Below are positions 1-45,339 of a stretch of DNA of 64,000 nt, piece after piece. The position numbers and the translations under genes are program-made. The notes below the pieces were generated by a model. The model worked only from the letters and a program-made list of their open reading frames with translations, ran no database searches and was not told the DNA's origin. The stretch's first letter is position 1. Each line of letters begins with the position of its first letter. Location: assembly GCA_050183995.1 (NCBI GenBank), contig JBFXAT010000017.1:3167-67166 (forward strand). Reading direction: 5' to 3'. The stretch is from Vicinamibacterales bacterium. GTDB taxonomy: Bacteria > Acidobacteriota > Vicinamibacteria > Vicinamibacterales > CAVVIG01.

Positions 1-669
1 CATCCGATACCAGAACGCGACGGCGGCGAGCACGCCTTCGAAGACGGCCGTCACGATCGTCACCAGGGGAACGCCGTTGCGGCGCGTCCGCCAGGATCGT
101 ATCGCGACGGCGTTGATGGCCGGCACGCTGACAAAGGACGACCCGGGCGACACCGCGAAGCCGAGAGCGGAGGCGGCAATGAGGGCGCCGGCGTGGGCGA
201 GACGGATCTCGCAGCGTTCGAGGAGCCGAAGCGTGAAGTAGAGCAGGAGAGCCCCGATGAAGAAGTCCAGCGAGTACTGCTTCACGAAGAGGGTGTAGTG
301 TGCCAGCAGCGGATTCAACGCCGTGACCGCCGCACCGAGAAGCGCAAGGCCGTCGCTCTTCGTGAGACGGCGTACGACGGCGGCGATCACGGGAATGCTG
401 GCCAGGCCCGCCGCGAATGGGACGAGCTGCATCGACAGTTCCGGATCGTCGATCAGCAGGGAAGAGGCGGTGAGGAGCGCAAGGAATCCGGACGGAGCAT
501 GTGATGGAGCATGGAGGACCGCCCTCACGTCATGCGTTCTGGCGAACACCGCCCAAGCGAGATCGTCGTACCAGAGCGACTCGGGGTTCAGGCCGGAGGT
601 TCGGGCGACCGTGGTGCCGATGACGAGCAGAGCGAGCCCTGCCAGCAGCACGAGGGACGGTCGAGACAT
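1..669 (-). CDS. GT-C fold (PMT_2/ArnT-like) polytopic membrane glycosyltransferase, N-terminal 223 codons; 3' end runs off the window
   Basis: Not in the ORF track because it is open at the window edge. My translation of the minus strand from ATG at 669..667 gives MSRPSLVLLAGLALLVIGTTVARTSGLNPESLWYDDLAWAVF...NPLLAHYTLFVKQYSLDFF... TM1 is followed by an acidic DD loop motif, then several hydrophobic helices. Codons are GC3-rich and there is no stop down to position 1. Confidence 0.7.
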   Translation of the reverse strand, partial: MSRPSLVLLAGLALLVIGTTVARTSGLNPESLWYDDLAWAVFARTHDVRAVLHAPSHAPSGFLALLTASSLLIDDPELSMQLVPFAAGLASIPVIAAVVRRLTKSDGLALLGAAVTALNPLLAHYTLFVKQYSLDFFIGALLLYFTLRLLERCEIRLAHAGALIAASALGFAVSPGSSFVSVPAINAVAIRSWRTRRNGVPLVTIVTAVFEGVLAAVAFWYRM

Positions 670-960
670 TCCCTCGGTGGCACTATCCTGGGAGCGTTGT
701 GGAGAGTGCGACATCAGCACGTGTAGCCCGACGGAGAACCGCGTTGCGACGCTCCCGCCAGAGAACTTGAGGAGCGAGGAGCGAAAGGCGCGAGTAGGGC
801 CTTCATGCTAGCACAGGGCATGTGCAGTGTCAGGCTTTCTCCCACTCGTGATTGTGGTCCGCCTGTCACCTGTGGGAAGATCCCGGCCGCAGATCCAGAT
901 CGTGCTCCGGTCGACAACGGTCCAGACGACGAGGTACGGGATCGGTCCGGGCCGGTCCTG

Positions 961-2583
961 ATGGCGCAGCCGGTCAATTCGAGACATCTCTTGCGTCGGA
1001 CCAACCGCCGGAATCGACTGGGCACGAGGCTGTGGGAACGGATCGCGTCGTGGCCACGAGCGTGGCAATACGCGCTGCTCGCCGCGGCGGTCATCGGATC
1101 ACTGCCGCTGGTGACGATGAGGCTGTACGCCTCCGACGAAATCGAGTACTTCGCCTACCTGCGGTCGATGTGGTTCGACCGCGATCTCTCCTTCGACAAC
1201 GAGTACCACTACTTCTACGATCGGGGCATCGCGCATGGGGTCCGACCGCTCCCGGACGGCTCTGGTGTGATCGGTGGCCGATTCAGCGAGACGTTTCTCG
1301 AAGCGGAGACGCCGACAGGACGGCGGTTCAACTTCGCACCGGTTGGCACGGCGATCATGTGGACGCCGTTCTATGCCGCCGCTGATCTTGGAGTACGTAT
1401 CGCTCGAGCGCTCGGTGCCTCGGTACCGGCCGACGGTTTTTCGCAGCCGTACATCGCCGCGGTCACGTTGGGATCGGCGTTCTACGGCATCTTGGCGATC
1501 GTGCTGTCGACGATCGCCGTCCGTCAGGTCTTCGGAACAGGTGACCTCAGCGCCGCTGCGATTGGCGCGGGCACGCCGCTGCTGTTCTACACGTACATCG
1601 CCCCTGGCTACTCGCACGCCTGTTCGGCCGCGGTGGTGGCGGCCTTGGTCGTGGTGTGGCTGCGCGTTCGCCGCGACTGGGCTCCCCTGGGTGTCATCGC
1701 GCTCGGCGCGCTGGCGGCGCTGACGGGGATGGTGCGGGAGCAGGACGCGTTCATCGCGCTCGGACCCGCGATCGACTTCGCGACGACAGCGGTGCGATCG
1801 GTTCGGACTGGCAAGACGAAGCCGGCCCGTTGGATCCTGCACGTGGTCGCCGGAGTAGCGACGACGGCACTCTGCGTACTTCCGCAGGCCTTTACCTACC
1901 TCGCGCTGTACGGACGCCTTGGCCCTTCCACAGCGGTTGCCGAGAAGATGTCGTGGACGGCGCCCTACGTCTGGAAGCTCCTCGCGTCGACGGAGTACGG
2001 TGCGCTCTTCTGGTCGCCAATCCTCGTTCCGGCCTTCGCAGGACTCGCGCTGCTCGTCGCCGGCGCCTTCGACAGGGCGATTCCGGTTCATTCCGGCACC
2101 AATGGCACTCATCCCGCTACCAACGAAGCCCATCCCGCCATCGACGAGACCGGCCTGTCCGACACGCCGTGGATTTCCGACACACAGTGGATTGGTGTGA
2201 TCTGCGCCATCATGGTCGGCACGCAACTCTGGATCTCCGGCAGCGTGAGCAGCTGGACCGGCAGCGCGTTCGGACAGCGACGGTTGATCGGATTGACCGT
2301 GTGCCTGTCGATCGGACTCTCCGCCGCGTTCCGCGCGATCGCCGCCGGCTGTCGCCGACAGATCCTGCTGGTGGTCGTCTGCGTGTGCGTCTGGTGGAAT
2401 CTGGGCCTGGTGGCGCAATACGGCAGCGGCCTGATGGATCGGCAGCGGCTCGAGCTCGGCCGCAACGCGTACAACAACTTCGTGACGGTCCCAATTCGCT
2501 TGCCGCGGCTCGTCTATCGGTACGTGTTCGACCGGCCATCGTTCTACCGTGGTCCGGCCGGTCGGCCGACGTCGGGTCGCTGA
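961..2583 (+). CDS. polytopic membrane protein, GT-C-like putative glycosyltransferase
   Basis: ORF 805..2583. Start moved to ATG 961 (MAQPVNSRHLL...). TM1 is followed by SDEIEYFAYLRS, which resembles the DE loop motif of PMT/GT39 enzymes. At least 10 hydrophobic segments. Ends 6 nt before the next GT4 gene. Confidence 0.6.
   Translation: MAQPVNSRHLLRRTNRRNRLGTRLWERIASWPRAWQYALLAAAVIGSLPLVTMRLYASDEIEYFAYLRSMWFDRDLSFDNEYHYFYDRGIAHGVRPLPDGSGVIGGRFSETFLEAETPTGRRFNFAPVGTAIMWTPFYAAADLGVRIARALGASVPADGFSQPYIAAVTLGSAFYGILAIVLSTIAVRQVFGTGDLSAAAIGAGTPLLFYTYIAPGYSHACSAAVVAALVVVWLRVRRDWAPLGVIALGALAALTGMVREQDAFIALGPAIDFATTAVRSVRTGKTKPARWILHVVAGVATTALCVLPQAFTYLALYGRLGPSTAVAEKMSWTAPYVWKLLASTEYGALFWSPILVPAFAGLALLVAGAFDRAIPVHSGTNGTHPATNEAHPAIDETGLSDTPWISDTQWIGVICAIMVGTQLWISGSVSSWTGSAFGQRRLIGLTVCLSIGLSAAFRAIAAGCRRQILLVVVCVCVWWNLGLVAQYGSGLMDRQRLELGRNAYNNFVTVPIRLPRLVYRYVFDRPSFYRGPAGRPTSGR
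2158..2193 (+). repeat. in-frame 18-bp tandem duplication (SDTPWI/SDTQWI) inside the 961..2583 CDS
   Basis: tccgacacgccgtggatt (2158..2175) is followed directly by tccgacacacagtggatt (2176..2193), 16/18 identical. It lies in a low-complexity loop (HPATNEAHPAIDE...). Confidence 0.8.
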
Positions 2584-2589
2584 GCGGCC

Positions 2590-3759
2590 GTGCCGATGCG
2601 GATCCTCTACACGGCCATCGATCAGGCGGTCCCCTCGTCGCACGGGGGCGCCGTCCACGTGACCGCGGTCGCCGAGGGGCTCGCCGCGCTCGGACACGAC
2701 ATGCACGTGCTCGTGTCGCCTGGAGAGGGTAGCTCCTCCGACGCCGTTCATTGGGCGTCCATGCCTCCCCCGTTTGGCCTGCGACAGCTGCGCCTGGCGC
2801 GTGCGCCCGCGGTGATCCGGCGGGCCCGCAAGATTCAGCCCGACGTCGTCATGGAGCGCTACTACAACTTCGGCGGCGAGGGGCTGCTCGCCGCGCGCCG
2901 CGTGGGAGCGATCGCCGTCCTCGAGGTGAACGCGCCGGTCGTCGACTACCCTGGATCACTCAAGGCTCGGCTCGACAGGCTCCTGCTGGCGCGGCCGCTC
3001 GAGCGTTGGCGCAACTGGCAGTGCCGTGCGAGCGACCTGATCGTCACGCCGACGGCGAAGATCCTGCCGCTCGACGTCGTCAGGGGCCGGATCCTCGAGG
3101 CCGAGTGGGGTGGTGACGTCGAGCGCTTCAGGCCGGACGTCGTCGGGCCGGTTCCCTTTCGCCGCGACGCCGGGGAGAGCATCGTGGTGTTTGTCGGGGC
3201 GTTCCGCGCGTGGCACGGCGCGGCCCAGCTCGTCGAGGCCGTGCGGCAATTGCGCGCGCGCGGGCGGTCCGACATCAAGGTCGTGTTGATCGGCTCCGGC
3301 CCCGAGTTCGCGGCCGTCAGCGCGGCGGCGGCGGGCATCCCGGGTATTGTTTTGACCGGTGCGCTGAAGCACGACGCGGTTCCGGCGTGCCTGGCGGCTG
3401 CCGACGTCGGCGTCGCGCCGTTCGACGTCTCCCGGCATCCGGCACTGGCGCTCGACTTCTTCTGGTCCCCGCTGAAGATCTTCGAGTACATGGCGTCCGG
3501 GCTTCCCGTCGTCGTGCCGCGGATTCCCCGGATGGCCCAGATCGTCCGGGATGGCCTGGAGGGATTTCTCTACGACGCAGGCGACCCCGGGGCGCTCTCG
3601 GCGGCCATCGAGCGCGCGGTCGACGCCGCGGGGCGCGTGCGCATCGGGGCGGCGGCGCGCGCACGCGTGGTCGAGCACTTCAGCTGGCAGGGGCACTGCG
3701 TCGCCCTCGATGCGGCGATCCGCGCCGCTGCCGGGGCGAAGCGATGTGCTTCGCGGTGA
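2590..3759 (+). CDS. GT4-family (GT-B fold) glycosyltransferase
   Basis: N-terminus RILYTAIDQAVPSSHGGAVHV...LGHDMHVL. C-terminal Glycos_transf_1-like region with E-x7-E-type motif (LKIFEYMASGLPVVVP). ATG at 2596 is an alternative start. Confidence 0.8.
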   Translation: MPMRILYTAIDQAVPSSHGGAVHVTAVAEGLAALGHDMHVLVSPGEGSSSDAVHWASMPPPFGLRQLRLARAPAVIRRARKIQPDVVMERYYNFGGEGLLAARRVGAIAVLEVNAPVVDYPGSLKARLDRLLLARPLERWRNWQCRASDLIVTPTAKILPLDVVRGRILEAEWGGDVERFRPDVVGPVPFRRDAGESIVVFVGAFRAWHGAAQLVEAVRQLRARGRSDIKVVLIGSGPEFAAVSAAAAGIPGIVLTGALKHDAVPACLAAADVGVAPFDVSRHPALALDFFWSPLKIFEYMASGLPVVVPRIPRMAQIVRDGLEGFLYDAGDPGALSAAIERAVDAAGRVRIGAAARARVVEHFSWQGHCVALDAAIRAAAGAKRCASR

Positions 3760-3769
3760 GCGGCCGGGC

Positions 3770-5014
3770 ATGAGGATCCTGATCGTGACCGACGCGTTTC
3801 CGCCGACGTGCGGCGGCAGCGGTTGGAGCACCTACGAGCTCACTCGCGGCCTGCGTCAGCGCGGGCACTACGCAGTCGTCGTGCAGCCGACCGCGGATGG
3901 ACGGCCGTGGGCCTACGACGGCATCGATGTCACGGCGTTCCCGGCGCCGGCACCATCGCTCCCGTTCGTGAGGAACTACGCGCGCAACGAGCGGCTCTAC
4001 CCGAAGCTCGATCGGTTCCTGCGCGACGTCATCGCGCGCGAGCGCATCGACATCGTGCACGGACAGCACGTGCTGTCCGGGCCCGCGGCGATCGGCGCGG
4101 CCCGCGCCTCGGGCATCCCCGCGGTCTGCACCGTGCGGGACTACTGGCCAGTGTGCTACTGGGGCGATCTGCTGCGTCGCGACACGGACGCGCCGATCTG
4201 CCCGCAGTGCAGCGCTCGCGCGATGGTCTCGTGCCTGCCGCTGCATGCCGGCGGCGCGTGGCCCCTGACGTTGCCCGCCATTCCGTATATGCGATCCAAT
4301 CTCCGCATGAAGCAGGCGACGCTCGCCCAGGCGGACGCGGTGATCGCGGTCAGCCGCAGCGTCGAAGCCGATCTGCGGGCGCGCGCTCCGGAACTGGCGC
4401 GGACACGGGTCGAGGCCATTCCGAACGCGGTCGACGTTCGACGTATCCGGGTCGCCGCGGGTCGCGAAGGGCCGCCCGCGGAGCATCCGTACGCGCTGTT
4501 CATCGGCAAGCTCACGCGCAACAAGGGGGCCCGTCTGCTCGTGGAGGTCATCCAGCGCGCGGCGTTGACCATGCCGCTCGTGGTGGCCGGCGACGGCCCC
4601 GATCGAACGGCACTGCTGCAAGCCGCCGCCGCGGCAGGGCGGGACGTGCGCGTGCTCGGCTGGCGCGATCGGGACGAGGTGTTCCGCTGGCTGGCGCACG
4701 CCCAGCTCCTGGTATTCCCGTCGGTGTGGAAGGAACCGCTCAGCAGAGTGCTGCTCGAAGCGAGCGCATTGGGAGTGCCGATGGCCGCAATGGACACGGG
4801 CGGCACGTCTGACATCATCGTGCACGGCGAGACGGGCCTGCTGTCGCAGTCCGCGGAAGCGCTCGCGTCTGACGTGACGCGCCTGAGCGCCGACGAGGCA
4901 TTGCGCGCCACGCTGCGAGCCGGCGCCGCGCGCCGCGCCGAGGCCCTGTTCGACATCGGCGTGGTCGTGAAACGAATGGAGCGGCTCTACACCGAGCTCA
5001 TCGGCCTGCGCTGA
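3770..5014 (+). CDS. GT4-family glycosyltransferase
   Basis: C-terminal part of ORF 3551..5014, with start set at in-frame ATG 3770 (MRILIVTDAFPPTCGGSGWSTYEL). C-terminal motif VFPSVWKEPLSRVLLEASALGVPMAAMDTGG...GETGLL. Confidence 0.8.
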   Translation: MRILIVTDAFPPTCGGSGWSTYELTRGLRQRGHYAVVVQPTADGRPWAYDGIDVTAFPAPAPSLPFVRNYARNERLYPKLDRFLRDVIARERIDIVHGQHVLSGPAAIGAARASGIPAVCTVRDYWPVCYWGDLLRRDTDAPICPQCSARAMVSCLPLHAGGAWPLTLPAIPYMRSNLRMKQATLAQADAVIAVSRSVEADLRARAPELARTRVEAIPNAVDVRRIRVAAGREGPPAEHPYALFIGKLTRNKGARLLVEVIQRAALTMPLVVAGDGPDRTALLQAAAAAGRDVRVLGWRDRDEVFRWLAHAQLLVFPSVWKEPLSRVLLEASALGVPMAAMDTGGTSDIIVHGETGLLSQSAEALASDVTRLSADEALRATLRAGAARRAEALFDIGVVVKRMERLYTELIGLR

Positions 5015-5106
5015 CGTCCGGCGTTTCCCGGGTTCCAGCGGTGCCTCGTGAGACTCCGTATCGCCTGCGCGCGCGGCAGGTCGACCCGTCTTTTAACGGA
5101 CTTCTT

Positions 5107-7623
5107 TCAGCGGACTTCGACCCGATCGAGCACGACACCGAGATCGCGCGTATCCCCACCGCCGATGGTACGCGCGGGGTTCCACGTCCGGGTGTCGAGG
5201 CGGAGGACGGCGGCGCCGTCCTGGCGCGCGAGCGCGGCTGCCAGGTCTGCGGGAATGTCGAAGCGATACGGCTCGATTCCCCCCCGAACGGTCACCGTGC
5301 CCAGTTGGCGATCACCAAGCGTCACGGCGATCCCCGCCGGCTCCGCGGTCGGCGGTCGCCCTCCTTGGCCCATCCAGATCGTCAGGGTGCGATGCTCCGC
5401 GCGGATGCCGACGAGCGAGAGGAACGAGACGTCACGCGTCCAACGCGACGTCAGCCCACCCGAGGTGGTCTCCTTGGCGTGGAAGCGCCGCACGTAGAGG
5501 TCGTCGGCGGATCCGACGTCGATGTCGATCGTCGCCCCGTTCACCGGCTGCGGGAGGAGCTCGTACACGCTGAGGTCGAACTCCTTGTGCCGGACGCGTT
5601 GCGGAAAGGCGTTGACGGGCGATTCGAATTCGGGAATCTGAAACCGTTCGCCGCGGACCGGGACAGCGCTCATGGATCGCGACAGGAGCTCGGTGCCGCC
5701 GCCTCCGCCGCCGACGAAGAAGACCCGGCGATAACGCCCGAGCGCCCACCCGAGGAACTCGCGGAAGACCTCCTTCGGCGGGTCTGTCTGCGCGAATACG
5801 AGCACGTTCCGTGCGTAGATGTACGCCAGCGGGAGCGCGAGCACGTGCGAGTCCGAAGCCCCTCTGGCTTCGAACACGACGAGGTCGTCGTCGCCGAACG
5901 TGGCCGCGAGCGCCTCCATGTGCGGAATGAGCGTCGCGTATTCGACGTGGCGCATGATCGGCCGTGACGCCTCGTGGAACGACTGCGCAAGGATCGCGAT
6001 CAGCGCGACACCGGCCAGCCGTCGCCACATGCGGGCGCGCGCCGTGTCGAAGCGGCGCCAGATGCCGGCCGCCGAGGCGGGCACCGGGGCGAATGCCGCG
6101 GCCCCGACGAACAGGAGCATGCCTGGCAGGATCACGGCCAGGAACCGGCGCGCCGCCCAGAAGTGTTCTGGGATGATCCGGATCTTGTAGAAGAAGACGA
6201 CCGAAAACGCCGCGACGAGAATCGCGAAGGTCGACGCCTGCCGTCGCGTCCAGACGATGAACACGAAGCCCGCCAGGGCCGCGGTCACACCGATGGGGGT
6301 GACGTAGAACGCCGCAAAGTCGCGCAGGCTGTTGGCGTCGTGCGGCGCGAGCCGGCCCGCGGGTGTGCGAACGAAATACGCGTACGCGGCGAGGCCGCAC
6401 ACGGCGAGGGTCAGAGCGGCGGTCACGGGCAGGAATCGTCGATCTGGTGCCAGACGCCGAGAGGCAAGCAGGGTGAAAAGCCCCACCGCGGCGAGACCAG
6501 CGATCCCGGCCACTTGTGGACCGTTGAGACTGGCGATGAATTCCGCCGGCACGTTGAAGTACGGCGGGATGTAGCGCCAGAGGAACACGAGCGCCACAAC
6601 GGTGCCGAGCGCCAGCAGGAGCCAGAATGCCGACCGTATGCGGTAGCCGTAGAGCGCCACGTCGACGGCCGCGCCCGCGGCAATCGCCAGCATCACGAAG
6701 ATGCCGGTGATGTGCGTGAGCGCGCCAAGAGTGAAGAGGAGCGCGGCGACAGGCGCGAAAAACGGCATGTCGTCGTGGACGGCCCTGGAGTACGCGAGGA
6801 CGCCGGCGAACACGAGAGGCTGCAGCAGGATCTCGGCGCTCGGATAGCGCGCGTACCACAGCTGTGCGACGTTCAGCGCCAGTAGCCCGGCGCCGGCCGC
6901 GGCGGCGGCCCGACCAAGAAGGCGGACGCCGGCCATGTACACGGCGACGACGCCGAAGACGGCGCAGAACACGGGAACGTATCGCGCACCACTCAGGCCG
7001 TTGAGTCCGTACGCGAGGGCCACCCACGACGAGAAGCCCGCCGGGAACTGCGCGACGACGGTTCCGGGCGTCGGGTCGAGCAGGAAGAACCCCATGAAGC
7101 GGCTGCTGTAGTAGCCCGCTTCAGTCGTCCTGGCGAAGAAGAGATCACGAAACACGGCCGGCAGCGTCTGGACGCTCTGGTCCTGCACGACGATGCCGCC
7201 GCGCTGCGCGATGCGGATACCCGCGTTCACGTACACGCCAGGGTCCTTGCCGCCCATGACGTATTCCGCCGGCGGCACGACTGAGAACACATACGCGGAC
7301 CCGGCGAGGAGCAGGAGCGGGACGGCCATCGACCATGTCGGCGGGACCGCGGCCGCGCCGAAGCGAAGTCGGCTCCGGAAGACAAGGAGGACGGCGACGA
7401 CCACTGTGGCGTCGATCCAGAGGACGCGAGAGAACGTGTATCGATTCGCGGTCGCCAGGGCGAGCGCGGCCATCGTGGACAGAAGGACGCTCAGCGCGAT
7501 CGACCAGAACGCGCGTTCCTCGGCCGGAAGGCCGGCGCGGGCCGACACCCGCGCTGTGGGAATTCGGAGGATGACCGCGCCAGGCACGAAGCCGAGGAGC
7601 AGTGCCTGCAGGATTGACGTCAC
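5107..7623 (-). CDS. 838-aa polytopic GT-C-like membrane protein with a soluble C-terminal domain of about 230 aa
   Basis: GTG start overlaps the stop of the upstream GT4 (GTGA). TM1 is followed by a GGKDPGVYVNAG loop, then many hydrophobic helices up to about residue 600. A non-membrane tail follows (FFVGGGGGGTELL...DIDVGSADDLYVRRFHAKE...). Confidence 0.55.
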   Translation of the reverse strand: MTSILQALLLGFVPGAVILRIPTARVSARAGLPAEERAFWSIALSVLLSTMAALALATANRYTFSRVLWIDATVVVAVLLVFRSRLRFGAAAVPPTWSMAVPLLLLAGSAYVFSVVPPAEYVMGGKDPGVYVNAGIRIAQRGGIVVQDQSVQTLPAVFRDLFFARTTEAGYYSSRFMGFFLLDPTPGTVVAQFPAGFSSWVALAYGLNGLSGARYVPVFCAVFGVVAVYMAGVRLLGRAAAAAGAGLLALNVAQLWYARYPSAEILLQPLVFAGVLAYSRAVHDDMPFFAPVAALLFTLGALTHITGIFVMLAIAAGAAVDVALYGYRIRSAFWLLLALGTVVALVFLWRYIPPYFNVPAEFIASLNGPQVAGIAGLAAVGLFTLLASRRLAPDRRFLPVTAALTLAVCGLAAYAYFVRTPAGRLAPHDANSLRDFAAFYVTPIGVTAALAGFVFIVWTRRQASTFAILVAAFSVVFFYKIRIIPEHFWAARRFLAVILPGMLLFVGAAAFAPVPASAAGIWRRFDTARARMWRRLAGVALIAILAQSFHEASRPIMRHVEYATLIPHMEALAATFGDDDLVVFEARGASDSHVLALPLAYIYARNVLVFAQTDPPKEVFREFLGWALGRYRRVFFVGGGGGGTELLSRSMSAVPVRGERFQIPEFESPVNAFPQRVRHKEFDLSVYELLPQPVNGATIDIDVGSADDLYVRRFHAKETTSGGLTSRWTRDVSFLSLVGIRAEHRTLTIWMGQGGRPPTAEPAGIAVTLGDRQLGTVTVRGGIEPYRFDIPADLAAALARQDGAAVLRLDTRTWNPARTIGGGDTRDLGVVLDRVEVR

Positions 7624-8867: not shown

Positions 8868-8945
8868 GAGCGCTGAGCCTCTCGATCTCTCGATGGAGCC
8901 TGACACGGAATGGGCCGCGGCCCCTGGCGTGGAGGACGGAGCCGG

Positions 8946-8957
8946 CATTGTACAATG
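8946..8957. promoter_or_regulatory. perfect 12-bp palindrome CATTGTACAATG in the divergent GT4/GT4 intergenic region, presenting TACAAT on both strands
   Basis: Read directly. It is its own reverse complement. It sits 20 nt upstream of ATG 8977 and 79 nt upstream of GTG 8867. Confidence 0.4.
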
Positions 8958-8976
8958 GGCCCCTTTAGCCCTGCCG

Positions 8977-11045: not shown

Positions 11046-11141
11046 CGCCCCGTGCGAGGCGCCTCCCTCGTGTCCAGCTCCGTCGCGTTCAACCCTGCCT
11101 GAAGCTCCGGTGATCCCGCAGGCCTTCACGCCAGTGGACCA

Positions 11142-13805
11142 TCACGGCCGGACGTAGGCCTGGTAGCGGCCGTAGGTCGCGACCGGCTCGAGCGCGAACG
11201 CCGGCCCGAAGAGTCTGTCGAAGACGTTGCGGCTGCCGCCCGCCAACGCGTCGGTCCTGACGATGACCACATCGCATCCGCCCGGTTGGGGCACGCGGTT
11301 GATCCCTCCGCGCGGCGCGACCGATAGGTCGACGACGGTGTTCCGGAAGGCGACGTCCTGCAGGTCCAGCGGGCGATCGAAGCGGCTCGCCAAGAAGAAT
11401 CGAGTGTGGTCGCACTGGAGCTGCTTGGCGCGCTGGTAGGCGGCAGTTGCCAGATAGAGCCCCCGATGCTCCCACGCTGCCGGCATGCCCAGGGCGAGGC
11501 AGGACGATTCGGCAGTGGTCAGGCGGAGCGCCGCCGCCTCCGCGTTCGCGGAATCCTTTCCTTCATGCCACGCCACGGCGGCAACGAACGCGAGCGCGCC
11601 GAACGCGACCGCTGGCCAGTGCGGGAACGCGGCCAGACGGGCGGCCTGCCGATACGCGACCAAGACGAGCGCGGCGGCTGCGACCCAGAACAGGAGCGTG
11701 GGGTCGACGACCAGGAGCCATGCCGTCGAGGGCAGGTTCAGAGTCGAAGAATGCCCGGCGGCGTGCCAAACGGCACCGCCAACGATCACCGCCCAGCCAA
11801 CCGGCAGTCCGATTCGGCTGCGGTCCCACGGGAGACCGTCCATGAAGAGGCAGCTGAAGGCAGCGAGGAGGAACAGGAAGTAGAACGGAAGCAGGTAACG
11901 TACCGACAGGTTCCTGGTCCAGTCGAGGCTGGTCCATGGGAGTCCGGCGACCACATACGCGTGCAGCAGGAACGCCAGGACCACTCCGACGATGAACAGC
12001 AGCTTCCGACGGGCGGTGCTCGAAAGCGTGCCTGTACGAGCGAGTTGAGCGGCCGCGTCGGCTCCAACGACGAGTAGGGCAGTGGGCAGCCAGACGATCC
12101 AGGCCCCGAACATCTGGACGATTGCCTCTTGCGCCCGTGCGATGAGGGGGTAATCGGCATGACCCTTCAGATCGCCGACGACCGAGAGGTACTCGCGGAC
12201 GCTGCTGGCGGCCGGTCCTGCAAAGATCTGTAGGCCGAGGACTGAGAAGCCGAAGGGCGCCAGCGGCGACCCGAATGCCCACCAGTTGCGCAGCAGCCAT
12301 ACGCCGCCGGCAGCCACGGCCGCGCCGCACGCCAGCAGGACGGGTGCGAGACGCAGCCCCATACTGCGGCCCTGCATGCGGGCGATCGACGCAGCGGCGA
12401 TCAGCGCCGGCAGGCCGATCGCGGCGAGCGACAAGCCTCCTGTCGACTTCGTGCCGAGCAGCCATCCGGCCGCGAGCCCCATTGCCACGACGGTGCGCGG
12501 GGTGAACGAGCCATCGCGCCAGAGTCGGAGTGCTGCGGCTGTCACGGCGAGCGTCGCCGCCGCGTACGACAGGTCCGCCGACATCAACAGGCTGAGGCGC
12601 GGCAGGAATCCGGAAAATGCCACGAGCATCAGCCACGGCACCCACGAGAGTCCCGAACGCCCGCAGATGATCCTGAAGATCAGACCGGAGGATGTCACGA
12701 GCAGGACGAGCGCGGGCAGCGTCGCGAGATCCACGAGCAGCGGGCCGCTGAAGGGCAACATGAACCATGCGGCCCAGACGCTGGTGCTCATCGGGTAGAG
12801 GTGCGGCGTCGCCAAGGCCGCCGTTGGACGTATGCCCCGAAGGAAGTTCACCGCGTGCGGCAGGTGATAGTGTGCGGCGTCGGTGCCGGCGACGTCCGCC
12901 GTGGCAGACGCCTGCCAGATCCACTGAAGCAGCAACGCCAGCGCGAGCGATGCTCCGACGACATCTGCAAGGGAGATGCGTCGTTCTGGTGAGGGTGCCG
13001 GCATCGGCTCCTCCGGACTGTTCCCGGCTCGACCGGTCAGCCGGACCCAGGCGACGGCGGCGACGTACGTGGCGATGAGGCCGGCCGCGACGCCTCCCAG
13101 ACTCAGGCCGACGCTGAAGACGAGCACGTGCAGCACGACGAACAGATGTCCGAGGCCGAAGAGCGTCACGTCGAACGCGTCATCGTCCCACGACGGCATC
13201 CTCGTACCTGTGCGTCGAAGCAGCCATGCAGCGGCCACGAGAATCGGGGTCAGCGTCAGAACCCAGAACGCGGCGATGACGAGGCTTCGGCCGAGGGTTG
13301 GTTTCGGCGCGGAACGGTAGCCGACCTCGACCGTCGCCGGCGCGGCAACGACGCCGTTGCGATGCGAGAACCAGAAGCGTTCCTCGTAGACCGCATCCCA
13401 GTGCAATTCGTAGCGCCCGGGTCGGTCCGGTGCGACGACCGTCGCGCAGATCGACAGGGTCTGGCCCGGAGCGAGGCCGCTCGGCAATCGCGTGCGCAGC
13501 CCTTCGAAGACGGCGATCGCGCCCTGTGCATCGACCCAGTGGTACGAGATGCCGATAGGCTCGGCGCGCGTCCACGGCTCCGTGCCGCCGTTCCGGACCG
13601 TGAGCGCGACGAGCGCCCGTTCGGACAAGGAGAGGGCCGGCGGCAGGCGGTGATCGAGCACGTCGAGCTCGTAGGCCGGCTGTTCCGGCGGCTGCGCAGC
13701 GGTCGACGAGGCCGCGAGGAGCAGCACGACGAGGCCGATGGCGAGCTGCCGCAGGAACGTGAAGGCAGGGCCCCGCGGCTCGACGCGATGCGGCAGCCTG
13801 GACAT
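11142..13805 (-). CDS. 888-aa fusion: signal anchor + Ig-like (NBR1-type-like) extracytoplasmic domain + large polytopic GT-C-like domain + C-terminal soluble domain
   Basis: Part of ORF 11142..14153, with start set at ATG 13805 (MSRLPHRVEPRG...LAIGLVVLLLAASS). N-domain motifs: LVALTVRNGGTEPW, ISYHW, LAPGQTLSICATVVAPDRPGRYELHWDAVYEERFWF. More than 12 hydrophobic helices follow, then a tail of about 130 aa. Confidence 0.6.
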   Translation of the reverse strand: MSRLPHRVEPRGPAFTFLRQLAIGLVVLLLAASSTAAQPPEQPAYELDVLDHRLPPALSLSERALVALTVRNGGTEPWTRAEPIGISYHWVDAQGAIAVFEGLRTRLPSGLAPGQTLSICATVVAPDRPGRYELHWDAVYEERFWFSHRNGVVAAPATVEVGYRSAPKPTLGRSLVIAAFWVLTLTPILVAAAWLLRRTGTRMPSWDDDAFDVTLFGLGHLFVVLHVLVFSVGLSLGGVAAGLIATYVAAVAWVRLTGRAGNSPEEPMPAPSPERRISLADVVGASLALALLLQWIWQASATADVAGTDAAHYHLPHAVNFLRGIRPTAALATPHLYPMSTSVWAAWFMLPFSGPLLVDLATLPALVLLVTSSGLIFRIICGRSGLSWVPWLMLVAFSGFLPRLSLLMSADLSYAAATLAVTAAALRLWRDGSFTPRTVVAMGLAAGWLLGTKSTGGLSLAAIGLPALIAAASIARMQGRSMGLRLAPVLLACGAAVAAGGVWLLRNWWAFGSPLAPFGFSVLGLQIFAGPAASSVREYLSVVGDLKGHADYPLIARAQEAIVQMFGAWIVWLPTALLVVGADAAAQLARTGTLSSTARRKLLFIVGVVLAFLLHAYVVAGLPWTSLDWTRNLSVRYLLPFYFLFLLAAFSCLFMDGLPWDRSRIGLPVGWAVIVGGAVWHAAGHSSTLNLPSTAWLLVVDPTLLFWVAAAALVLVAYRQAARLAAFPHWPAVAFGALAFVAAVAWHEGKDSANAEAAALRLTTAESSCLALGMPAAWEHRGLYLATAAYQRAKQLQCDHTRFFLASRFDRPLDLQDVAFRNTVVDLSVAPRGGINRVPQPGGCDVVIVRTDALAGGSRNVFDRLFGPAFALEPVATYGRYQAYVRP

Positions 13806-13818
13806 GCGACGTCGCTCG

Positions 13819-15336
13819 TCAGCCGTCGAGCCGGCAGATCCGAATCTCTGGTCCCAGGATTCGGCCGTGCGGCTTGAACGGAGGCAGGCAGACACTGGGC
13901 TCGTCGAACAGGGCACGATACCGCGCCTGTTTGGACGCGTTGCCGGCGCCGCCGTCGAGCACTCGCCCGTAGGCGTCCGATGTTCCGACGACGTAGCGCA
14001 CACCTGCGGCGAGATACTGCTCGGGCGTGCGCTCGGCGAGACTCTGGACGGGGAGCGTGCGGTAGTCGCGTTCAGGGAGCCACATGACGCCGTGTTCGAC
14101 AGCGACGGTCGTCCCCGGCGGAACGAACGCCCGGAGCGCCTGGTAGGCGACATCCTGCGTGGTGCGCGCGCCTTGACGGTGTACCCAGGTGACCGAGGTC
14201 GTCCCCAGCTTCAGCGTGGCGATGCCCCAGAGACAAGCCACTACGGCGATGCGAGTCCAACGAGGACGCCACGACGCGCGGGAGATCGCGGTCGTCAGGT
14301 CGGTGAGCAGCGCCGCGAGAGCGATGGCCACGTTGGGGAGGATTGGAAGCAGATACCGCGCGTAGATCAAGTGCTTCGTCGCGATCACGTAAAGATAGAC
14401 GAGCGGAAACGCCGCCAGCAGGAGAGGCTTGGCGCGGCTTTGCCCGCGGACACGGCGGACCAGCCTCCACAGCAATCCCGTCGCGACGAGCGCGACCGCC
14501 GGCCAGCCGATGCTCCCAGCCATGTGTCCGGCGTAGATGCCGAGACCGTTTGCAAGCGGGCGTGGACGGTAGGACTGCGACAGGAACGCGAATCCGTCGA
14601 GGAATCCCGGCAGGTCGAGAATCGTGTACGGAGCCGCGACCAGGTACGCGGCCGCCGCGCCCGCAACGGTCGCCGCGGCACGTGTCCAGAACGCCGAAAC
14701 TGGCGCGGCCAGCGCTGCGCTGATGAGCGGCATGACCAGGCTGATCGCGCCGTTGTATTTCACCGCGGCGGCGAGACCGGCCAACATGCCGGCGAGGGCG
14801 AACTGTCTGGGGCGCGGGTCCTCGGTCGTGCGGAGCGACGCGACAAGGACCGCCGCGACCAGCGCCGTCAGCGGAACGTCGGTCAGCGCGAAGTGGGACT
14901 CGCGGACGTGATTGCCCCAGAACGCCAGGAGCGCAGCGGCCGTGATGGCGGTCCACACGCCCCAACGCAGTCCGGCGCGGTAGGTCAGATAGACGGTGAA
15001 CGTCCCGAGCGCCGCGTTGAGCGCCCGGGTCCACGGGTAGACGTCGTGAGGCGTGAACGCGGAAAGCCGCTGCCATTCGCCTGACATCGCGCCGCTGAGG
15101 AACCGGGCCGCGGCCACCGCCGCCTGGAGGTAGATGTAGAGGCTGGGATAGTCATAGAAGTGCGGATTGAAATCGCCGCTGCGGAGGATCTGCAGCGCGT
15201 GTTCGACGATGACCGGCTCGTCGGCGCCCACCCGATGGGGATATCCCGCCGTCAAATTGCAGAATCGCAAGGAGGCAGCCGCGACGATCACGACCGCAAG
15301 CGTCAGACGCGTGTGCCAGGCCTTGGTGGCGGTCAT
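13819..15336 (-). CDS. GT39/PMT_2-family (ArnT-like) membrane glycosyltransferase
   Basis: LAVVIVAAASLRFCNLTAGYPHRVGADEPVIVEHAL (DE loop motif)...DFNPHFYDYPSLYIYLQAAV, plus multiple TM helices. This N-terminal pattern is typical of PMT_2 proteins. Confidence 0.8.
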   Translation of the reverse strand: MTATKAWHTRLTLAVVIVAAASLRFCNLTAGYPHRVGADEPVIVEHALQILRSGDFNPHFYDYPSLYIYLQAAVAAARFLSGAMSGEWQRLSAFTPHDVYPWTRALNAALGTFTVYLTYRAGLRWGVWTAITAAALLAFWGNHVRESHFALTDVPLTALVAAVLVASLRTTEDPRPRQFALAGMLAGLAAAVKYNGAISLVMPLISAALAAPVSAFWTRAAATVAGAAAAYLVAAPYTILDLPGFLDGFAFLSQSYRPRPLANGLGIYAGHMAGSIGWPAVALVATGLLWRLVRRVRGQSRAKPLLLAAFPLVYLYVIATKHLIYARYLLPILPNVAIALAALLTDLTTAISRASWRPRWTRIAVVACLWGIATLKLGTTSVTWVHRQGARTTQDVAYQALRAFVPPGTTVAVEHGVMWLPERDYRTLPVQSLAERTPEQYLAAGVRYVVGTSDAYGRVLDGGAGNASKQARYRALFDEPSVCLPPFKPHGRILGPEIRICRLDG

Positions 15337-15351
15337 ATGTGTGCAGTGCGC

Positions 15352-16872
15352 CTAGGCACGCCTCGCGACGATGGCATAGTCGAGATAGGTGAACAACAGG
15401 CTGTTCAGCTTCTCGACGTTCTCGTTGAATATCGCGGCGCTCTCCGCCCCCTGTGCACTTGCGCCGACCGGGATGGGCTGCAGCTTCGACGCTTCGGGAA
15501 ACGGAGCGCTGAACCGGACCTCGACGTCCTGGAATCCGCTGGCGAGCACGAGATACCGGAGCGTGTCCGGATGCAGGGGCCGCACGTGCGTGATGTCGCG
15601 GATGTAGCTCGAGAAAAAGGCGAACCAGCACGCCGCATTGATCGTCTCGAGCACGATCGGGGCACCGGGCCGCAGCTTGTGGGAGGCCGCGTCGAGCAGC
15701 CGCAGGAGGTAGTCGGGCTCGAGGTGTTCGACGATCTGCGCGCCGAAGAGGCCGCCGAGCGACTCGTCGGGCTGCGCCAGCAGGTACCCCAGTGCGTCGC
15801 CGGTCGACGCCTGCAGTCCCCGATCGCGGCAGGTGCCGACCATCTCCTCGTTCGTGTCGACGCCTTTGGCTGTGATGCCTGCTTCGCGGAGCAGGTCGAG
15901 GAACTCGCCTCGACCGCAGCCGATGTCGAGGACGTCGCTCGCTCCCTCGAAGATCGCGACGTACGCCGACAGCCCCGCGCGAATTTCCGCCTGCGCGCCG
16001 CGGAACTGATCTTCGAAGCCCACGTACTTGTAGGAGTCCAGAGCTGTGCCGGCTGAGGGCGCCGGAAGCGCTGACGCGGGTGGTGGGCCGGGGGCTTGGT
16101 GCGCGGTACGCGGCGCGTCCGGTGAGGGCAAAGGCGTCTCGCCTGGCTCGCCCGGCGCCGAAACCGTTCGCGATTCGCCGGGCGCCGAGAGCGCACGCGA
16201 TTCGAGCTCGCGTTTGAGCGTCAGGATCGCACGGTGCGCGACGCCAAGGGTGCTTCGCACCTCGTCGACTTCGGACTGGAAGCGGCGGTCGCGTGCCAGC
16301 ATCGCTTCCCACGGCGACTGCATGGCGGCGATGGCCGCGTGCGTGGCCGATGCGAGCATGTACGGCACCGCCGCCACGTCGCGATCCTTGGTGTCGACGT
16401 AGGCGGTGATCGTCTGCGCGTATTGGACCAGCGTGGACTCGAAGTCCACGAGGCGCTCGAACTCTTCGCGGCAGATGGTGGCGGTGCGCGCCAGCGTCTC
16501 GGCGACCTGGCGCTGTGCGGCGGCCTCCCGGTTCAGGTGATCGACCAACGTGGCGTTGAAATCCTGCTGGGCCTGGAAGCTCGGGCCGAGCCACGCCCAC
16601 AGTCGCCGCTTGAGCCAGCCCAGCGCGCCGCTCGTGGGCGGCTCGGGCAGTACGCGCCAGCGGTTGTTGAGTTGTGAGAGCCGTGTCTCGTCTGGTTGCG
16701 AAGCGGGCGCCGGGAACTCCCGGCGCTGCTGAATCGCGCGGTCGAGCGCCGTCAGGGCGTCGTTGTAGGCGCGATCCGCATGCTCCCGTTCGTGCCGCAG
16801 GGCCGTCGGCTCATCGGCGGTTTCGACCGCTGGGGTTCGAGGCGGCGTGTTCATGGCGTCTGAAGTCGACAC
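15352..16872 (-). CDS. class I SAM-dependent methyltransferase with a long N-terminal helical/coiled-coil region and a Pro-rich linker
   Basis: C-terminal motif I VLDIGCGRGEFLDLL and post-I GVDTNEEMV. N-terminal region of about 240 aa is helical (DRAYNDALTALDRAIQQR..., QRQVAETLARTATICREEFERLVDFES...). Linker: SAPGESRTVSAPGEPGETPLPSPDAP. Confidence 0.8.
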   Translation of the reverse strand: MSTSDAMNTPPRTPAVETADEPTALRHEREHADRAYNDALTALDRAIQQRREFPAPASQPDETRLSQLNNRWRVLPEPPTSGALGWLKRRLWAWLGPSFQAQQDFNATLVDHLNREAAAQRQVAETLARTATICREEFERLVDFESTLVQYAQTITAYVDTKDRDVAAVPYMLASATHAAIAAMQSPWEAMLARDRRFQSEVDEVRSTLGVAHRAILTLKRELESRALSAPGESRTVSAPGEPGETPLPSPDAPRTAHQAPGPPPASALPAPSAGTALDSYKYVGFEDQFRGAQAEIRAGLSAYVAIFEGASDVLDIGCGRGEFLDLLREAGITAKGVDTNEEMVGTCRDRGLQASTGDALGYLLAQPDESLGGLFGAQIVEHLEPDYLLRLLDAASHKLRPGAPIVLETINAACWFAFFSSYIRDITHVRPLHPDTLRYLVLASGFQDVEVRFSAPFPEASKLQPIPVGASAQGAESAAIFNENVEKLNSLLFTYLDYAIVARRA

Positions 16873-16923
16873 AGTGAATCTCCGGTTCCAACGCGTTCGG
16901 GAACGGCCGGTCGCGAGGCCGCG

Positions 16924-18363
16924 TCACCGACTCGATGGTGAGCCTTCGGGTTGCTCCGCCGTCCACAGCGAGGCGATCCGCCCTGCGGGCAGGCCTGCGC
17001 CGCGCAACAGGGCGCGTGTATGTTCGGTGCCGTCCGTTCGAAAGTGAGCCGGAAGCCGTTCCAGCGCAGACCTGGAGGGCATCGGCGTAGCGCAGGCCGA
17101 TGCGAGCAGGGCATCGTAGCGCGCGACCATTTGAGCGAGCGTAAATCGCTCTTCCCACACGGCCCGCGCGCGGCGCCCCAGCCGGTCGCGCAGCGGCGCA
17201 TCGGCGGCGAGCCGCTGGACGGCCAACTGCAGCGAGTGTTCCTCGTCGATGATGTCGATGCTCACACAGGCGGGCTCGTCTCGAAGCGGCCAGCCGAAGG
17301 CGTCGGCGCGCGTCGCGGTGAAGTGGAGCGGCGTCCAGCTGCGCGGATCGTACGCGGGGACGTCGGTCGTGTGCGCCAGGTCGGAGATGACCGTGGGACG
17401 TCCGGCCGCGAGGCAGCGCAGCCAGGCGGCCGACGTCTCTCTCGATGTTGGCCATCGCAGGCACAGGCACACGTCTGCTGCCGCCAGATAGTCGCCGAGC
17501 TCGTCGTGGGACACGTACCCGGCGATCGTCACACGGTCTGCAACGCCGCAGGCGCGCGCGTCGGTCAGCGGATCGTAGAAGGGCACGCTCCCGCCCGCGA
17601 GCAGCAGGTGCACCGGCAGCCCCTGACGTGCCACGGCCGAGATCGCGCGTATCGACTGTGCGATCCGCTTCTCGGGCGTGATCTCCCCGAGTGCCGTGAA
17701 CACCACCGCGTCATCCGGAATCTGGTGACGCGCGCGGATTCGCTGCCTCGCGTCCGAGGAGGCGGCGAGCGCCGGAACGCCCATGTCGATGAGCTCCACG
17801 GGTGTGTCCGGATGTTCGCTGGCGATGACCTCAGCCAGATAACGGTTGTGCACGGCGACCGCGCGGGACGCCTGGATCGGCACGCTCCGCATGGGCCAGT
17901 AGTAAATCAACGAGCCCAGCCGACCGCGGATGCCGAGCTCGACCACCGAGCGATCCACCTCGGGATGGCTGAACGCGAACTCCGCCAGGTAATCGTCCGG
18001 CCGGCCCCGCTCGCGCAGGAACCGTCCGCGTGCGTGGTGGAACTGGCCGTCGTGCAGGACCACGAGTCCGGGAAACCGCGTCAGATACGCCCACATGTAG
18101 TCGTGGAACGGCGCGTTCCCGAGCTGATACACGACGAGGTCGAAGGCGCGCTGCCGGTGAACCCAGAGGAAGTCGTGCGCGCTCCGCACGGCGATGTCGC
18201 GTCCAGGTGGAACGCTGGCCTGGGCCGGATCGGCCACGAAGACCTGCAGGTCGTAGCGCGCCGACAGCCCGGGCAGGACATCCAAGCTGTACTGGGCGAT
18301 GCCCGAGCGCGCCGGTGGCAGGGGCGTGAACCACGCGATGCGCGGGCGGATCCGTTCGTCCAT
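16924..18363 (-). CDS. GT4-family glycosyltransferase
   Basis: RIAWFTPLPPARSGIAQYS... at the N-terminus. C-terminal region DVCLCLRWPTSRETSAAWLRCLAAGRPTVISD (E-x7-type). Confidence 0.75.
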   Translation of the reverse strand: MDERIRPRIAWFTPLPPARSGIAQYSLDVLPGLSARYDLQVFVADPAQASVPPGRDIAVRSAHDFLWVHRQRAFDLVVYQLGNAPFHDYMWAYLTRFPGLVVLHDGQFHHARGRFLRERGRPDDYLAEFAFSHPEVDRSVVELGIRGRLGSLIYYWPMRSVPIQASRAVAVHNRYLAEVIASEHPDTPVELIDMGVPALAASSDARQRIRARHQIPDDAVVFTALGEITPEKRIAQSIRAISAVARQGLPVHLLLAGGSVPFYDPLTDARACGVADRVTIAGYVSHDELGDYLAAADVCLCLRWPTSRETSAAWLRCLAAGRPTVISDLAHTTDVPAYDPRSWTPLHFTATRADAFGWPLRDEPACVSIDIIDEEHSLQLAVQRLAADAPLRDRLGRRARAVWEERFTLAQMVARYDALLASACATPMPSRSALERLPAHFRTDGTEHTRALLRGAGLPAGRIASLWTAEQPEGSPSSR

Positions 18364-18483
18364 TTTTGCGGTGCGAACATACTACCAGCGTCGAGTCTCC
18401 GGCAGGCGCCCCGGTTTCTTCGTGGTAGCCTCACGCGAGCCGCCACCCGATGCCGATGCGGATTCGATAACCCAGTCCTGCCC

Positions 18484-45019: not shown

Positions 45020-45339
45020 TACGCGTCCTCTATCGTCGCCTGCAGCGGATGCCCGGCGTCTTGAGCGGCCGACAGCAGCGCCTCGACCTTGGTCTCGGCG
45101 ACTTCCCATGGATACGAGCCAGCGACCCCTCGGCCCTCCGTATGGACCTGGATCATGACCCGATAGGCTTCGGCCGGCGACTTCTGAAACAGGCTCTCGA
45201 GCACGTCGACGACGAACTGCATCGGCGTGTAGTCGTCATTGAGCAGGACCACGTTGAAGAGCGTCGGTTCCTTCAGCTGATCCTGGACCCGCTCCTTGAC
45301 CGCGTCGCCGGTCTGCCCGTCCCGCTCCGTTGCGCCCAT
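45019..45339 (-). CDS. clpS: ClpS adaptor protein
   Basis: LFNVVLLNDDYTPMQFVVDVLESLF...A..VM..VH..G. Start at ATG 45339 or 45360. Confidence 0.9.
   Translation of the reverse strand: MGATERDGQTGDAVKERVQDQLKEPTLFNVVLLNDDYTPMQFVVDVLESLFQKSPAEAYRVMIQVHTEGRGVAGSYPWEVAETKVEALLSAAQDAGHPLQATIEDA

Follow-up and report, generated by a model that had tools for sequence, protein, structure and literature searches.

What kind of glycan does a bacterium make with a gene cluster that sets five polytopic, GT-C-like glycosyltransferases (GTs) beside cytoplasmic GT4 enzymes and a single polyprenyl-phosphate sugar synthase? This question is raised by a stretch of 64,000 nucleotides (the window; about 68% GC) from a Vicinamibacterales bacterium (assembly GCA_050183995.1, contig JBFXAT010000017.1, positions 3,167 to 67,166). 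Twelve consecutive glycan genes, numbered g1 to g12 from left to right, fill window positions 1-18363 and are arranged in five transcription units. Genes were called by third-position GC content (GC3) and checked with Pfam and NCBIfam profile searches. The calls uphold the twelve-gene locus of a first-pass annotation made from the sequence alone, with housekeeping genes at the right border. Its coordinates were correct, and the strand of the gene at 1-669 was corrected to minus. Furthermore, positions 1-18363 are the right-hand two-thirds of a larger envelope-glycan island beside recG.

The first-pass annotation had proposed that the locus follows the logic of lipomannan (LM) and lipoarabinomannan (LAM) assembly instead of that of O-antigen or exopolysaccharide (EPS) loci. 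Our analysis points to a different product, namely a lipid-linked surface glycan of the lipopolysaccharide (LPS)/O-antigen type or the EPS type with unusually heavy extracytoplasmic tailoring by GT-C enzymes, a reading that we give a probability of roughly 0.55. It is favoured because the same island in related genomes holds GT9, Wzy_C, Wzx and Bac_transf genes. The Vicinamibacteria, an almost uncultured class, rank with the most abundant bacteria of soils. To our knowledge nothing is known about their envelope glycans, and a literature search returned no paper on this locus or on vicinamibacterial glycans.

Glycosyltransferases of the GT-C fold

Hydropathy analysis confirmed five polytopic proteins, with about 9-15 transmembrane (TM) segments in the full-length g1, g2, g5 and g9 proteins and only seven in g10. 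The helices are visible in the predicted structures of g2 and g9. Enzymes of the GT-C-A type use lipid-phosphate-linked monosaccharides as donors (class table in PMC10920833). Pfam profiles and Foldseek comparisons support an assignment of all five proteins to GT-C-A, and do not group them with the Wzy polymerases or WaaL ligases. For g2, g5 and g9 the assignment is based on PMT_2 matches within the family (g5), on structural models compared by Foldseek with the PDB (g2 and g9), and on acidic residues that are placed, as judged from the sequence, in the loop past the first TM helix of the GT-C module. These residues are invariant in all three families. The first-pass annotation had already pointed to such acidic motifs; they are real, and the acidic residues of its g2 and g5 motifs are invariant in their families.

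The g5 gene (5107..7623, minus strand) encodes an 838-aa (amino acid) GT-C protein and is the anchor of the conserved core described below; its start overlaps the stop of g6 by 4 nt. The protein has about 13 TM helices, the first three of which precede the GT-C module, and ends in a soluble domain of about 300 aa. No Pfam match and no PDB sequence match was obtained with the g5 protein itself. Among 30 full-length relatives, seven matched PMT_2, and three of these exceeded the gathering score (27.0-27.7 vs 26.1). The match covers residues ~208-348, directly past the loop E120...GGKD127PG, and both E120 and D127 (GGKDPG) are invariant in the 30 relatives. Positions 711-834 of the g5 family profile (window 5107-5500, minus strand, about 120 aa) also match the C-terminus of an otherwise unrelated 499-aa protein (E 1.9e-7), encoded inside a relative's island at L087:2369-3868 (L numbers denote fetched loci). 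From its sequence, this C-terminal segment looks like a mobile periplasmic domain.

The second core GT-C protein is encoded by g2 (961..2583, plus strand; an alternative start at 991 would give 530 aa). More than 2,016 relatives make up its family, and no Pfam domain was assigned to any of them. One of 38 family members matched PMT_2 at E 0.0037, and g2 is 34% identical to a paralogue that scores 24.6 bits with PMT_2, under the 26.1-bit cutoff. The pair D49/E50 (SDEIEYF), which follows the first TM helix, is invariant in 38 relatives. The AlphaFold (AF2) model has a mean predicted local distance difference test score (pLDDT) of 82.8 and a predicted template-modelling score (pTM) of 0.86. Its top 24 PDB matches are all GT-C-A enzymes, with ALG12 as the best (E 4.2e-3) and TM-scores of 0.45-0.49. 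These matches include ALG12, STT3, EmbA/B/C, AftA, PglB, ALG3 and Pmt4.

In the variable arm to the right, g9 (11142..13805, minus strand) encodes 887 aa, comprising a signal anchor, a periplasmic immunoglobulin (Ig)-like domain of the NBR1 type, a GT-C module of about 13 TM helices and a C-terminal domain. The AF2 model (pLDDT 78.5, pTM 0.81) has a membrane domain that is closest to ArnT (5f15, E 3.4e-6), followed by EmbC, AglB and AftA, and an Ig-like domain that matches NBR1 (4ole) in Foldseek. No PMT or PMT_2 profile matched g9. Its motif GTDAAHYH, called weak in the first-pass annotation, is in fact the most conserved block of the family, with G307, D309, A310, Y313 and H314 invariant. 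A word-indexed search returned 14 relatives of g9, and an exhaustive search with a hidden Markov model (HMM) returned several dozen clusters at 50% identity. The HMM-found clusters match the membrane domain at full length, and many have no Ig domain. Hence, the apparent rarity of the family is partly due to the limit of the word-indexed method.

Three weak matches of g9 to Wzy_C-bearing proteins raised the option that g9 is itself a Wzy or WaaL protein. This option was rejected: the similarity is limited to the Ig-like domain, and the membrane domain resembles ArnT, Emb and AglB in structure. The Ig-like domain (window 13320-13667, minus strand; residues ~47-162) is 37-41% identical to an Ig domain within the Wzy_C proteins P0132-P0134, and in locus L090 a Wzy_C gene lies directly upstream of the g9 homologue. 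The sequences suggest that the Ig-like domain of g9 and the Ig insert of the Wzy_C proteins are a common glycan-binding module.

The remaining two polytopic proteins have Pfam matches of their own. The g1 gene (1..669, minus strand) supplies the N-terminal 223 aa of a 506-aa PMT_2-type GT-C protein (30.1 bits vs a cutoff of 26.1), with its N-terminus at 669. It is the first gene of a leftward operon that continues beyond the window edge, and the full-length gene is present in L001/L084. After the first TM helix it carries WYDDLAW, whose DD pair was observed in a single sequence. The g10 gene (13819..15336, minus strand), also in the variable arm, encodes a 505-aa PMT/PMT_2-type GT-C protein with 43.0 bits for PMT (cutoff 22.7), 36.4 bits for PMT_2 and 22.0 bits for GT87, under its cutoff of 25. 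It matched yeast Pmt1 (6p25) at E 0.0038 and was present in only five fetched loci. Its motif after the first TM helix is GADEPVIV, and the DE pair was likewise observed in a single sequence.

HMM searches with the GT-C families gave marginal matches to the PMT_2 core of g10, at the expected position. Foldseek searches with the g2 and g9 models returned no Wzy, WaaL or SEDS structure among the matches. Searches against PDB sequences with g2, g5, g9, g1, the 716-aa and MOP-like proteins of the left arm (see below) and the A1/A3 profiles gave nothing useful. The g2 and g9 families are two sizeable GT-C families that current profile libraries miss, and are new here.

Donor synthase, GT4 enzymes and methyltransferase

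The g8 gene (10017..11045, plus strand) encodes a GT2 enzyme with a Glycos_transf_2 domain at residues 10-168 and two C-terminal TM helices (235-253 and 272-290). Compared with the PDB, it aligns with ArnC (9hwj) at E 1.3e-11 over residues 5-295, and also with DPMS (5mlz) and GtrB (5ekp), which agrees with the earlier call of a polyprenyl-phosphate sugar synthase. Among the NCBIfam models, AglJ, PpgS, dolichyl-phosphate-hexose and ArnC matched, all under their equivalog cutoffs. The best was AglJ with 131.7 bits vs a cutoff of 325, and PpgS, ArnC and PgfS fell far under theirs; no match reached the equivalog level that would name the sugar. At the family level, g8 is thus predicted to be a polyprenyl-phosphate sugar synthase of the ArnC/DPMS/GtrB/AglJ type.

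Pfam profiles also bore out five GT4 enzymes starting at 2590, 3770, 7620, 8977 and 16924. The g3 product (2590..3759, plus strand) is a cytoplasmic GT4 of the GT-B fold with Glyco_transf_4 and Glycos_transf_1 domains; an exact-sequence look-up of g3 returned no record. The g4 gene (3770..5014, plus strand) is assigned to GT4 by Pfam, by generic NCBIfam GT4 matches under their cutoffs, and by synteny. Two further GT4 genes are recognised by Pfam, namely g6 (7620..8867, minus strand), which is translationally coupled to g5, and g7 (8977..10020, plus strand), whose stop overlaps the start of g8 by 4 nt and whose homologues are 344-348 aa long. The fifth, g12 (16924..18363, minus strand), encodes a GT-B enzyme with Glycos_transf_1 in its C-terminal half and adjoins recG; its orthologues lie beside recG/extracytoplasmic function (ECF) sigma genes in L085 and L087. 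The single methyltransferase of the locus, g11 (15352..16872, minus strand), was confirmed by Pfam as S-adenosylmethionine-dependent (Methyltransf_23/25/11 at residues 294-451), and has orthologues in L085, L087, L005 and L009. Its N-terminal ~290 aa match no family and are helical and charged in appearance.

The island beyond the window

Contig JBFWTR010000047.1 of another metagenome-assembled genome (GCA_050247735.1) matches the window at 100% identity along 12,398 bp and reaches 9,010 bp further left (locus L084). With it, the visible island of the focal genome extends to 27.4 kb, and the visible DNA to 73 kb with the whole window; 3.6 kb of this contig lay outside our data. Leftward from g1, the gene order is the rest of g1, a GT4, a 716-aa protein, two GT4 genes and then a divergent pair of a GT4 and a 524-aa protein. 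The 9-kb extension thus adds four further GT4 genes and two 14-TM proteins. The count for the island, which spans at least 27 kb, is then nine or more GT4 genes, six polytopic candidate transferases and one candidate flippase.

The 524-aa protein (L084:836-2410, about 7 kb left of the window) resembles the Wzx-type flippases of the multidrug/oligosaccharidyl-lipid/polysaccharide (MOP) superfamily, with 22.9 bits for Polysacc_synt_3 (cutoff 23) and E 8.6e-4 for the NCBIfam MOP flippase model. Its relatives were found by a metagenome scan with an alignment; an earlier scan with the protein itself found none. The 716-aa protein (L084:4811-6961, minus strand, 2.0-4.2 kb left of window position 1) has no relative in Pfam, NCBIfam, PDB-sequence or family-HMM searches; the one homologue detected is an orthologue in L093 at 56% identity. 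This protein may be the missing ligase or polymerase, or else a sixth GT-C enzyme. No small ORF (open reading frame) resembling GtrA or the small multidrug resistance (SMR) proteins was seen, and the gene spacing leaves no space for one.

The first-pass annotation had noted an absence of initiation, flippase and polymerase genes. This holds within the window only, given the MOP-like gene about 7 kb to its left, and the apparent absence is partly explained by the window edge, which cuts the locus. Neither a Bac_transf/WecA-type initiating phosphoglycosyl transferase (PGT) in the window plus the 9 kb to its left, nor nucleotide-sugar genes or a recognisable Wzy in the visible DNA of the focal genome, were found.

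Conserved core and variable arms

A g5 relative is encoded in at least 220 species genomes, essentially all of them Vicinamibacteria. Detection rates of the other genes were calculated from 54 loci with a full ±10 kb around g5. The g6 gene was found in 52 of these loci (48-65% identity to the window gene), and g8 in 51 (61-79% for true orthologues; the count includes weaker matches to paralogous GT2 genes). Lower rates were obtained for g7 (33 loci, 55-65%), g4 (26 loci, up to 61% for true orthologues), g2 (15 loci, up to 51%) and g3 (14 loci, 56-62%). Near g5 relatives, g1, g9, g10, g11, g12 and the 716-aa protein were rare or absent. On the basis of these detection rates, and as judged from sequence comparison, the island is divided into a core conserved across the class (g7-g8, g6-g5 and g4-g3-g2) and two variable arms (g9-g12 on the right, g1 and the genes leftward of it on the left). 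The synteny search proposed with the first-pass annotation shows that the core of its gene set recurs across the loci of relatives.

The variable arms are populated by GT-C, GT4, methyltransferase and MOP/Wzx-like genes. For instance, the slot between g12 and g11 holds a PMT-type GT-C gene in L085 and a TMEM260_N-type gene in L087, and L087 has a YfhO-type GT-C gene (39.6 bits) downstream of g5. GtrB-type GT2 genes number two or three in most relatives, against a single one in the focal genome and in each of its two closest relatives.

In 71 of 85 loci, a GT9 gene (Glyco_transf_9) follows directly after g5 on the same strand. The GT9 proteins matched the LPS heptosyltransferase I/II/III models with E 1e-28 to 1e-32, under the equivalog cutoffs. 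In the focal genome, g5 precedes the convergent g4 (gap 5014-5107) at the place where L085:12559-13731 and L088:12568-13746 carry the GT9.

Canonical glycan genes in related genomes

The closest well-assembled relative is covered by L085 and L090, which overlap on one contig and show an island of at least 37 kb beside recG. The gene order is g12, g10, g11, g8, g7, g6, g5, GT9, polytopic proteins, a second GT9, five GT4 genes, Wzy_C and a g9 homologue, followed by a g2 orthologue (49%), a g2 paralogue, two 11-TM proteins, a GT4 and a Wzx of the Polysacc_synt family. In a Joint Genome Institute (JGI) contig (L093), a Wzy_C-like protein (32% over 587 aa, E 3e-51) is encoded beside orthologues of the left-arm genes, as is a small initiating transferase of the Bac_transf type (45% over 170 aa, E 7e-34). 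The orthologues in L093 comprise gm5 (about 62% to the L092 orthologue), the MOP-like protein (57%), g0 (54%), the 716-aa protein (56%), g2 and g4. Furthermore, in a complete 7.59-Mb genome (L088) the neighbours of the core are a Wzx, a UDP-GlcNAc 2-epimerase and a PGT of the WbaP type that exceeds the TIGR03025 cutoff. Genes for polysaccharide co-polymerases (PCP) and outer membrane export proteins (OPX) were found neither in any fetched locus nor in the window. The search for Wzx and Wzy genes beyond position 1 thus returned the MOP-like gene in the focal genome and clear cases in the relatives.

Two homologues in these loci are split. The g9 homologue of L090 (L090:10001-12634) is divided into ORFs of 670 aa and 188 aa, and the g1 homologue of L092 (L092:18428-20393) into ORFs of 384 aa and 276 aa; these are either frameshifts or pseudogenes, or assembly errors.

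Borders of the island and remainder of the window

The five transcription units of the window are g1 (1-669, minus strand), which runs off the left edge, g2-g3-g4 (961-5014, plus strand), g6-g5 (8867-5107, minus strand, 4-nt overlap), g7-g8 (8977-11045, plus strand, 4-nt overlap) and g12-g11-g10-g9 (18363-11142, minus strand), one operon with g12 first. The right border is formed by recG (18480..20577, plus strand, start approximate; RecG_wedge, DEAD, Helicase_C and RecG_dom3_C domains), within a housekeeping region with rsmD, coaD and rho. The recG flank was also found in the relative L085.

The other 45 kb of the window contain housekeeping genes, including FtsH, ClpB, DnaJ, glycogen enzymes, a lactate permease and a histidine kinase. 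Pfam-type searches found no export, LPS or nucleotide-sugar genes in these 45 kb. No tRNA genes and no Rfam families at gathering thresholds were found across the 64 kb (1-64000), and promoter and terminator scans gave site counts not clearly higher than in shuffled controls. Two genes for double-AAA chaperones of the ClpB/ClpA type (29167-31857 and 42686-45235, both on the minus strand) occur within 15 kb, and FtsH and DnaJ genes adjoin the first of them. Two high-GC3 ORFs, at 47700-49430 (plus strand, 576 aa) and 51109-52371 (plus strand, 420 aa), had no Pfam match at E<=1e-4; both lie upstream of a sensor histidine kinase (53064-54827).

Interpretation

The gene families and folds support the general skeleton of the first-pass annotation, in which cytoplasmic GT4 enzymes, a polyprenyl-phosphate sugar synthase and periplasmic GT-C enzymes act together in a 'three-component' logic. 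In the reading that we favour, cytoplasmic GT-B enzymes would assemble a lipid-linked oligosaccharide from nucleotide sugars, either on undecaprenyl diphosphate (Und-PP) or on lipid A-core. The g8 enzyme, to judge by its family, would put one monosaccharide on polyprenyl phosphate. Donor and glycan would then be flipped across the membrane, and the MOP-like protein is a candidate for one flip. The periplasmic GT-C set, whose fold is evident and whose chemistry is presumed, would move the polyprenyl-phosphate-linked sugar to various positions of the glycan. Exchange of GT-C cassettes between relatives could then produce strain-specific structures. Systems of a synthase, a flippase of the multidrug and toxic compound extrusion (MATE)/MOP type and a GT-C enzyme have precedent, and the donor flippase can be a MATE/MOP protein (PMC11127046).

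Several observations weigh against an LPS/O-antigen-type or EPS-type product tailored in this way. An initiating transferase, Wzy_C, GT9, PCP/OPX, an ATP-binding cassette (ABC) exporter and lipid A/Kdo (3-deoxy-D-manno-oct-2-ulosonic acid) genes were all absent from the 27.4 kb of the focal island and from the rest of the window. Of 58 species, only one carries a WbaP-type PGT within 10 kb of g5. The MOP assignment of the 524-aa protein is borderline (22.9 vs 23 bits). Structural models cover g2 and g9 only, and the Foldseek E-values of g2 are weak (4e-3 and above). No significant match emerged when the g5, g2 and g9 families were compared by hhalign with one another and with g10. Moreover, a single donor synthase feeding five or six GT-C enzymes suits the building of a polymer as much as decoration.

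Among the alternatives, decoration of the LPS core or lipid A, as by the Rgt proteins of Rhizobium or by ArnT, survives best, and is still unlikely in our view. It holds that the GT4 enzymes, together with GT9 in relatives, extend lipid A-Kdo, and that after the MsbA flip the GT-C enzymes add the sugar derived from g8, so that the core genes need no Wzx or Wzy. RgtA and RgtB add galacturonic acid (GalA) to Kdo (PMC4402001). The co-oriented GT9 directly after g5, with its matches to the WaaC/F/Q models, fits this proposal, as do the closeness of g8 to ArnC among solved structures and of g9 to ArnT. The class-wide conservation of g5-g8 at 45-79% identity is expected of an inner core, and the Wzy_C proteins of relatives could be WaaL ligases. 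However, the 73 kb visible of the focal genome contain no GT9, the GT9 proteins of relatives stay under all equivalog cutoffs, and no Kdo transferase, lpx or msbA gene was found in any fetched locus. The PGT and Wzx of relatives indicate an Und-PP-linked component too.

The LM/LAM-like lipoglycan of the first-pass annotation, as a self-contained system, is probably not what the island encodes, and we rate it as quite improbable. In such a system the GT4 enzymes would mannosylate a glycolipid anchor, which would be flipped and extended by GT-C enzymes that polymerise a homoglycan from the g8 donor, without Und-PP initiation, Wzx/Wzy or export. The supply of five or six GT-C enzymes by one donor synthase agrees with this, and so does the lack of a PGT in the visible 27.4 kb. 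Moreover, the periplasmic domains of g5 and g9 (C-terminal or Ig-like) recall those of Emb and AftD, the folds of g2 and g9 matched Emb and AftA among others, and a class-wide core is expected of a structural envelope polymer. Against it stand the MOP-like flippase within the same locus and the relatives, where orthologues of the focal genes are intermingled with Wzy_C, Wzx, PGT and GT9 genes. No equivalog of PimA/PimB, PimE/GT87, Mpt or Emb/Aft was detected (GT87 reached 22 bits vs a cutoff of 25), and the strain-variable GT-C cassettes resemble a serotype-type diversification.

Protein O-glycosylation, in which PMT-type GT-C enzymes (g10, g1 and perhaps others) would put the g8-derived sugar on Ser/Thr of envelope proteins, as in the actinobacterial Pmt/Ppm1 system, while the GT4 enzymes build something else, is very improbable: the PMT and Pmt1 matches of g10 (43 bits and E 0.0038), the TMEM260_N-type gene in the same slot of L087 and the g8-like synthase as the required donor maker speak for it, but PMT_2/PMT matches are shared by GT39/GT83-like GT-C enzymes in general, ArnT included, g10 and g1 are in the variable arms and absent from most relatives, and the at least nine co-located GT4 genes with their Wzx/Wzy_C/PGT context point to a glycan linked to a lipid.

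An LPS/O-antigen-type or EPS-type surface glycan therefore remains our preferred product. A bolder proposal, which we regard as quite improbable, is that the Vicinamibacteria may build a major conserved envelope glycan mostly in the periplasm, with a GT-C-A set, including the g2 and g9 families, that polymerises from polyprenyl-phosphate donors. If true, periplasmic GT-C polymerisation would parallel, in a diderm and on an LPS/O-antigen-type scaffold, the LM/arabinan assembly of mycobacteria. The components are individually of known kinds, and for this reason the island alone overturns no model; new are their combination, the density of GT-C genes, which the first-pass annotation rightly called unusual, and the conservation across the class. 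The island, in at least 220 species genomes, joins ordinary O-antigen/LPS-type genes to an exceptional number of GT-C genes, and it offers natural cassette swaps for the study of how periplasmic GT-C enzymes diversify a surface.

Comparison with known systems

Examples of three-component systems are GtrB/GtrA/Gtr (Salmonella and Shigella O-antigens), ArnC/ArnEF/ArnT, CsbB/GtcA/YfhO and Citrobacter ORF15/ORF14/ORF12-GT136 (PMC11127046). The island resembles them in its GT2 synthase with C-terminal TM helices (g8), its GT-C-A transferases and its MATE/MOP flippase candidate. Moreover, as in the Gtr-type modification of O-antigens, GT-C cassettes are exchanged around a conserved synthase. In contrast to the single GT-C enzyme of these systems, the loci here have five or six, and one relative has up to about ten polytopic proteins. 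The island also differs in that it has no small flippase of the GtrA/SMR type, in that g5 and g2 occur across the class and hence are not serotype-specific, and in that its GT-C families g2 and g9 have no Pfam model.

In Rhizobium leguminosarum, RgtA/B/C/D together with RgtE decorate the LPS core and lipid A with GalA. The island shares with this system the presence of several ArnT-like GT-C paralogues and one ArnC-like synthase in a diderm, and in relatives it is linked to core-type GT9/GT4 transferases. Unlike the Rgt system, the focal genome has no GT9, the relatives have PGT, Wzx and Wzy_C, and the number of GT4 enzymes is far higher; no orthology at the sequence level was found, nor was a search aimed at it made.

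The mycobacterial assembly of phosphatidylinositol (PI) mannosides (PIM), LM, LAM and arabinan (PimA/B', Ppm1, PimE, MptA-C, EmbA-C and AftA-D) likewise combines GT4 steps, a polyprenyl-phosphate donor and multiple GT-C enzymes. Some GT-C enzymes of the island have extra carbohydrate-binding-like domains, as in that pathway, and the matches to Emb and AftA are at the level of the fold only. In contrast to the mycobacterial pathway, the island belongs to a diderm, has no equivalogs of the named enzymes, and carries no genes for inositol, PI or decaprenylphosphoryl-arabinose (DPA) pathways. Its GT4 enzymes gave only generic matches below threshold, and GT87 was matched below its cutoff by g10 only.

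With Wzx/Wzy loci for O-antigens and EPS, the island shares a hypervariable gene content at a fixed site, many GT4 genes and a MOP flippase candidate, along with the Wzx, Wzy_C and Bac_transf genes of its relatives. Unlike these loci, it is dominated by GT-C-A monosaccharide transferases instead of polymerases and ligases of the GT-C-B type.

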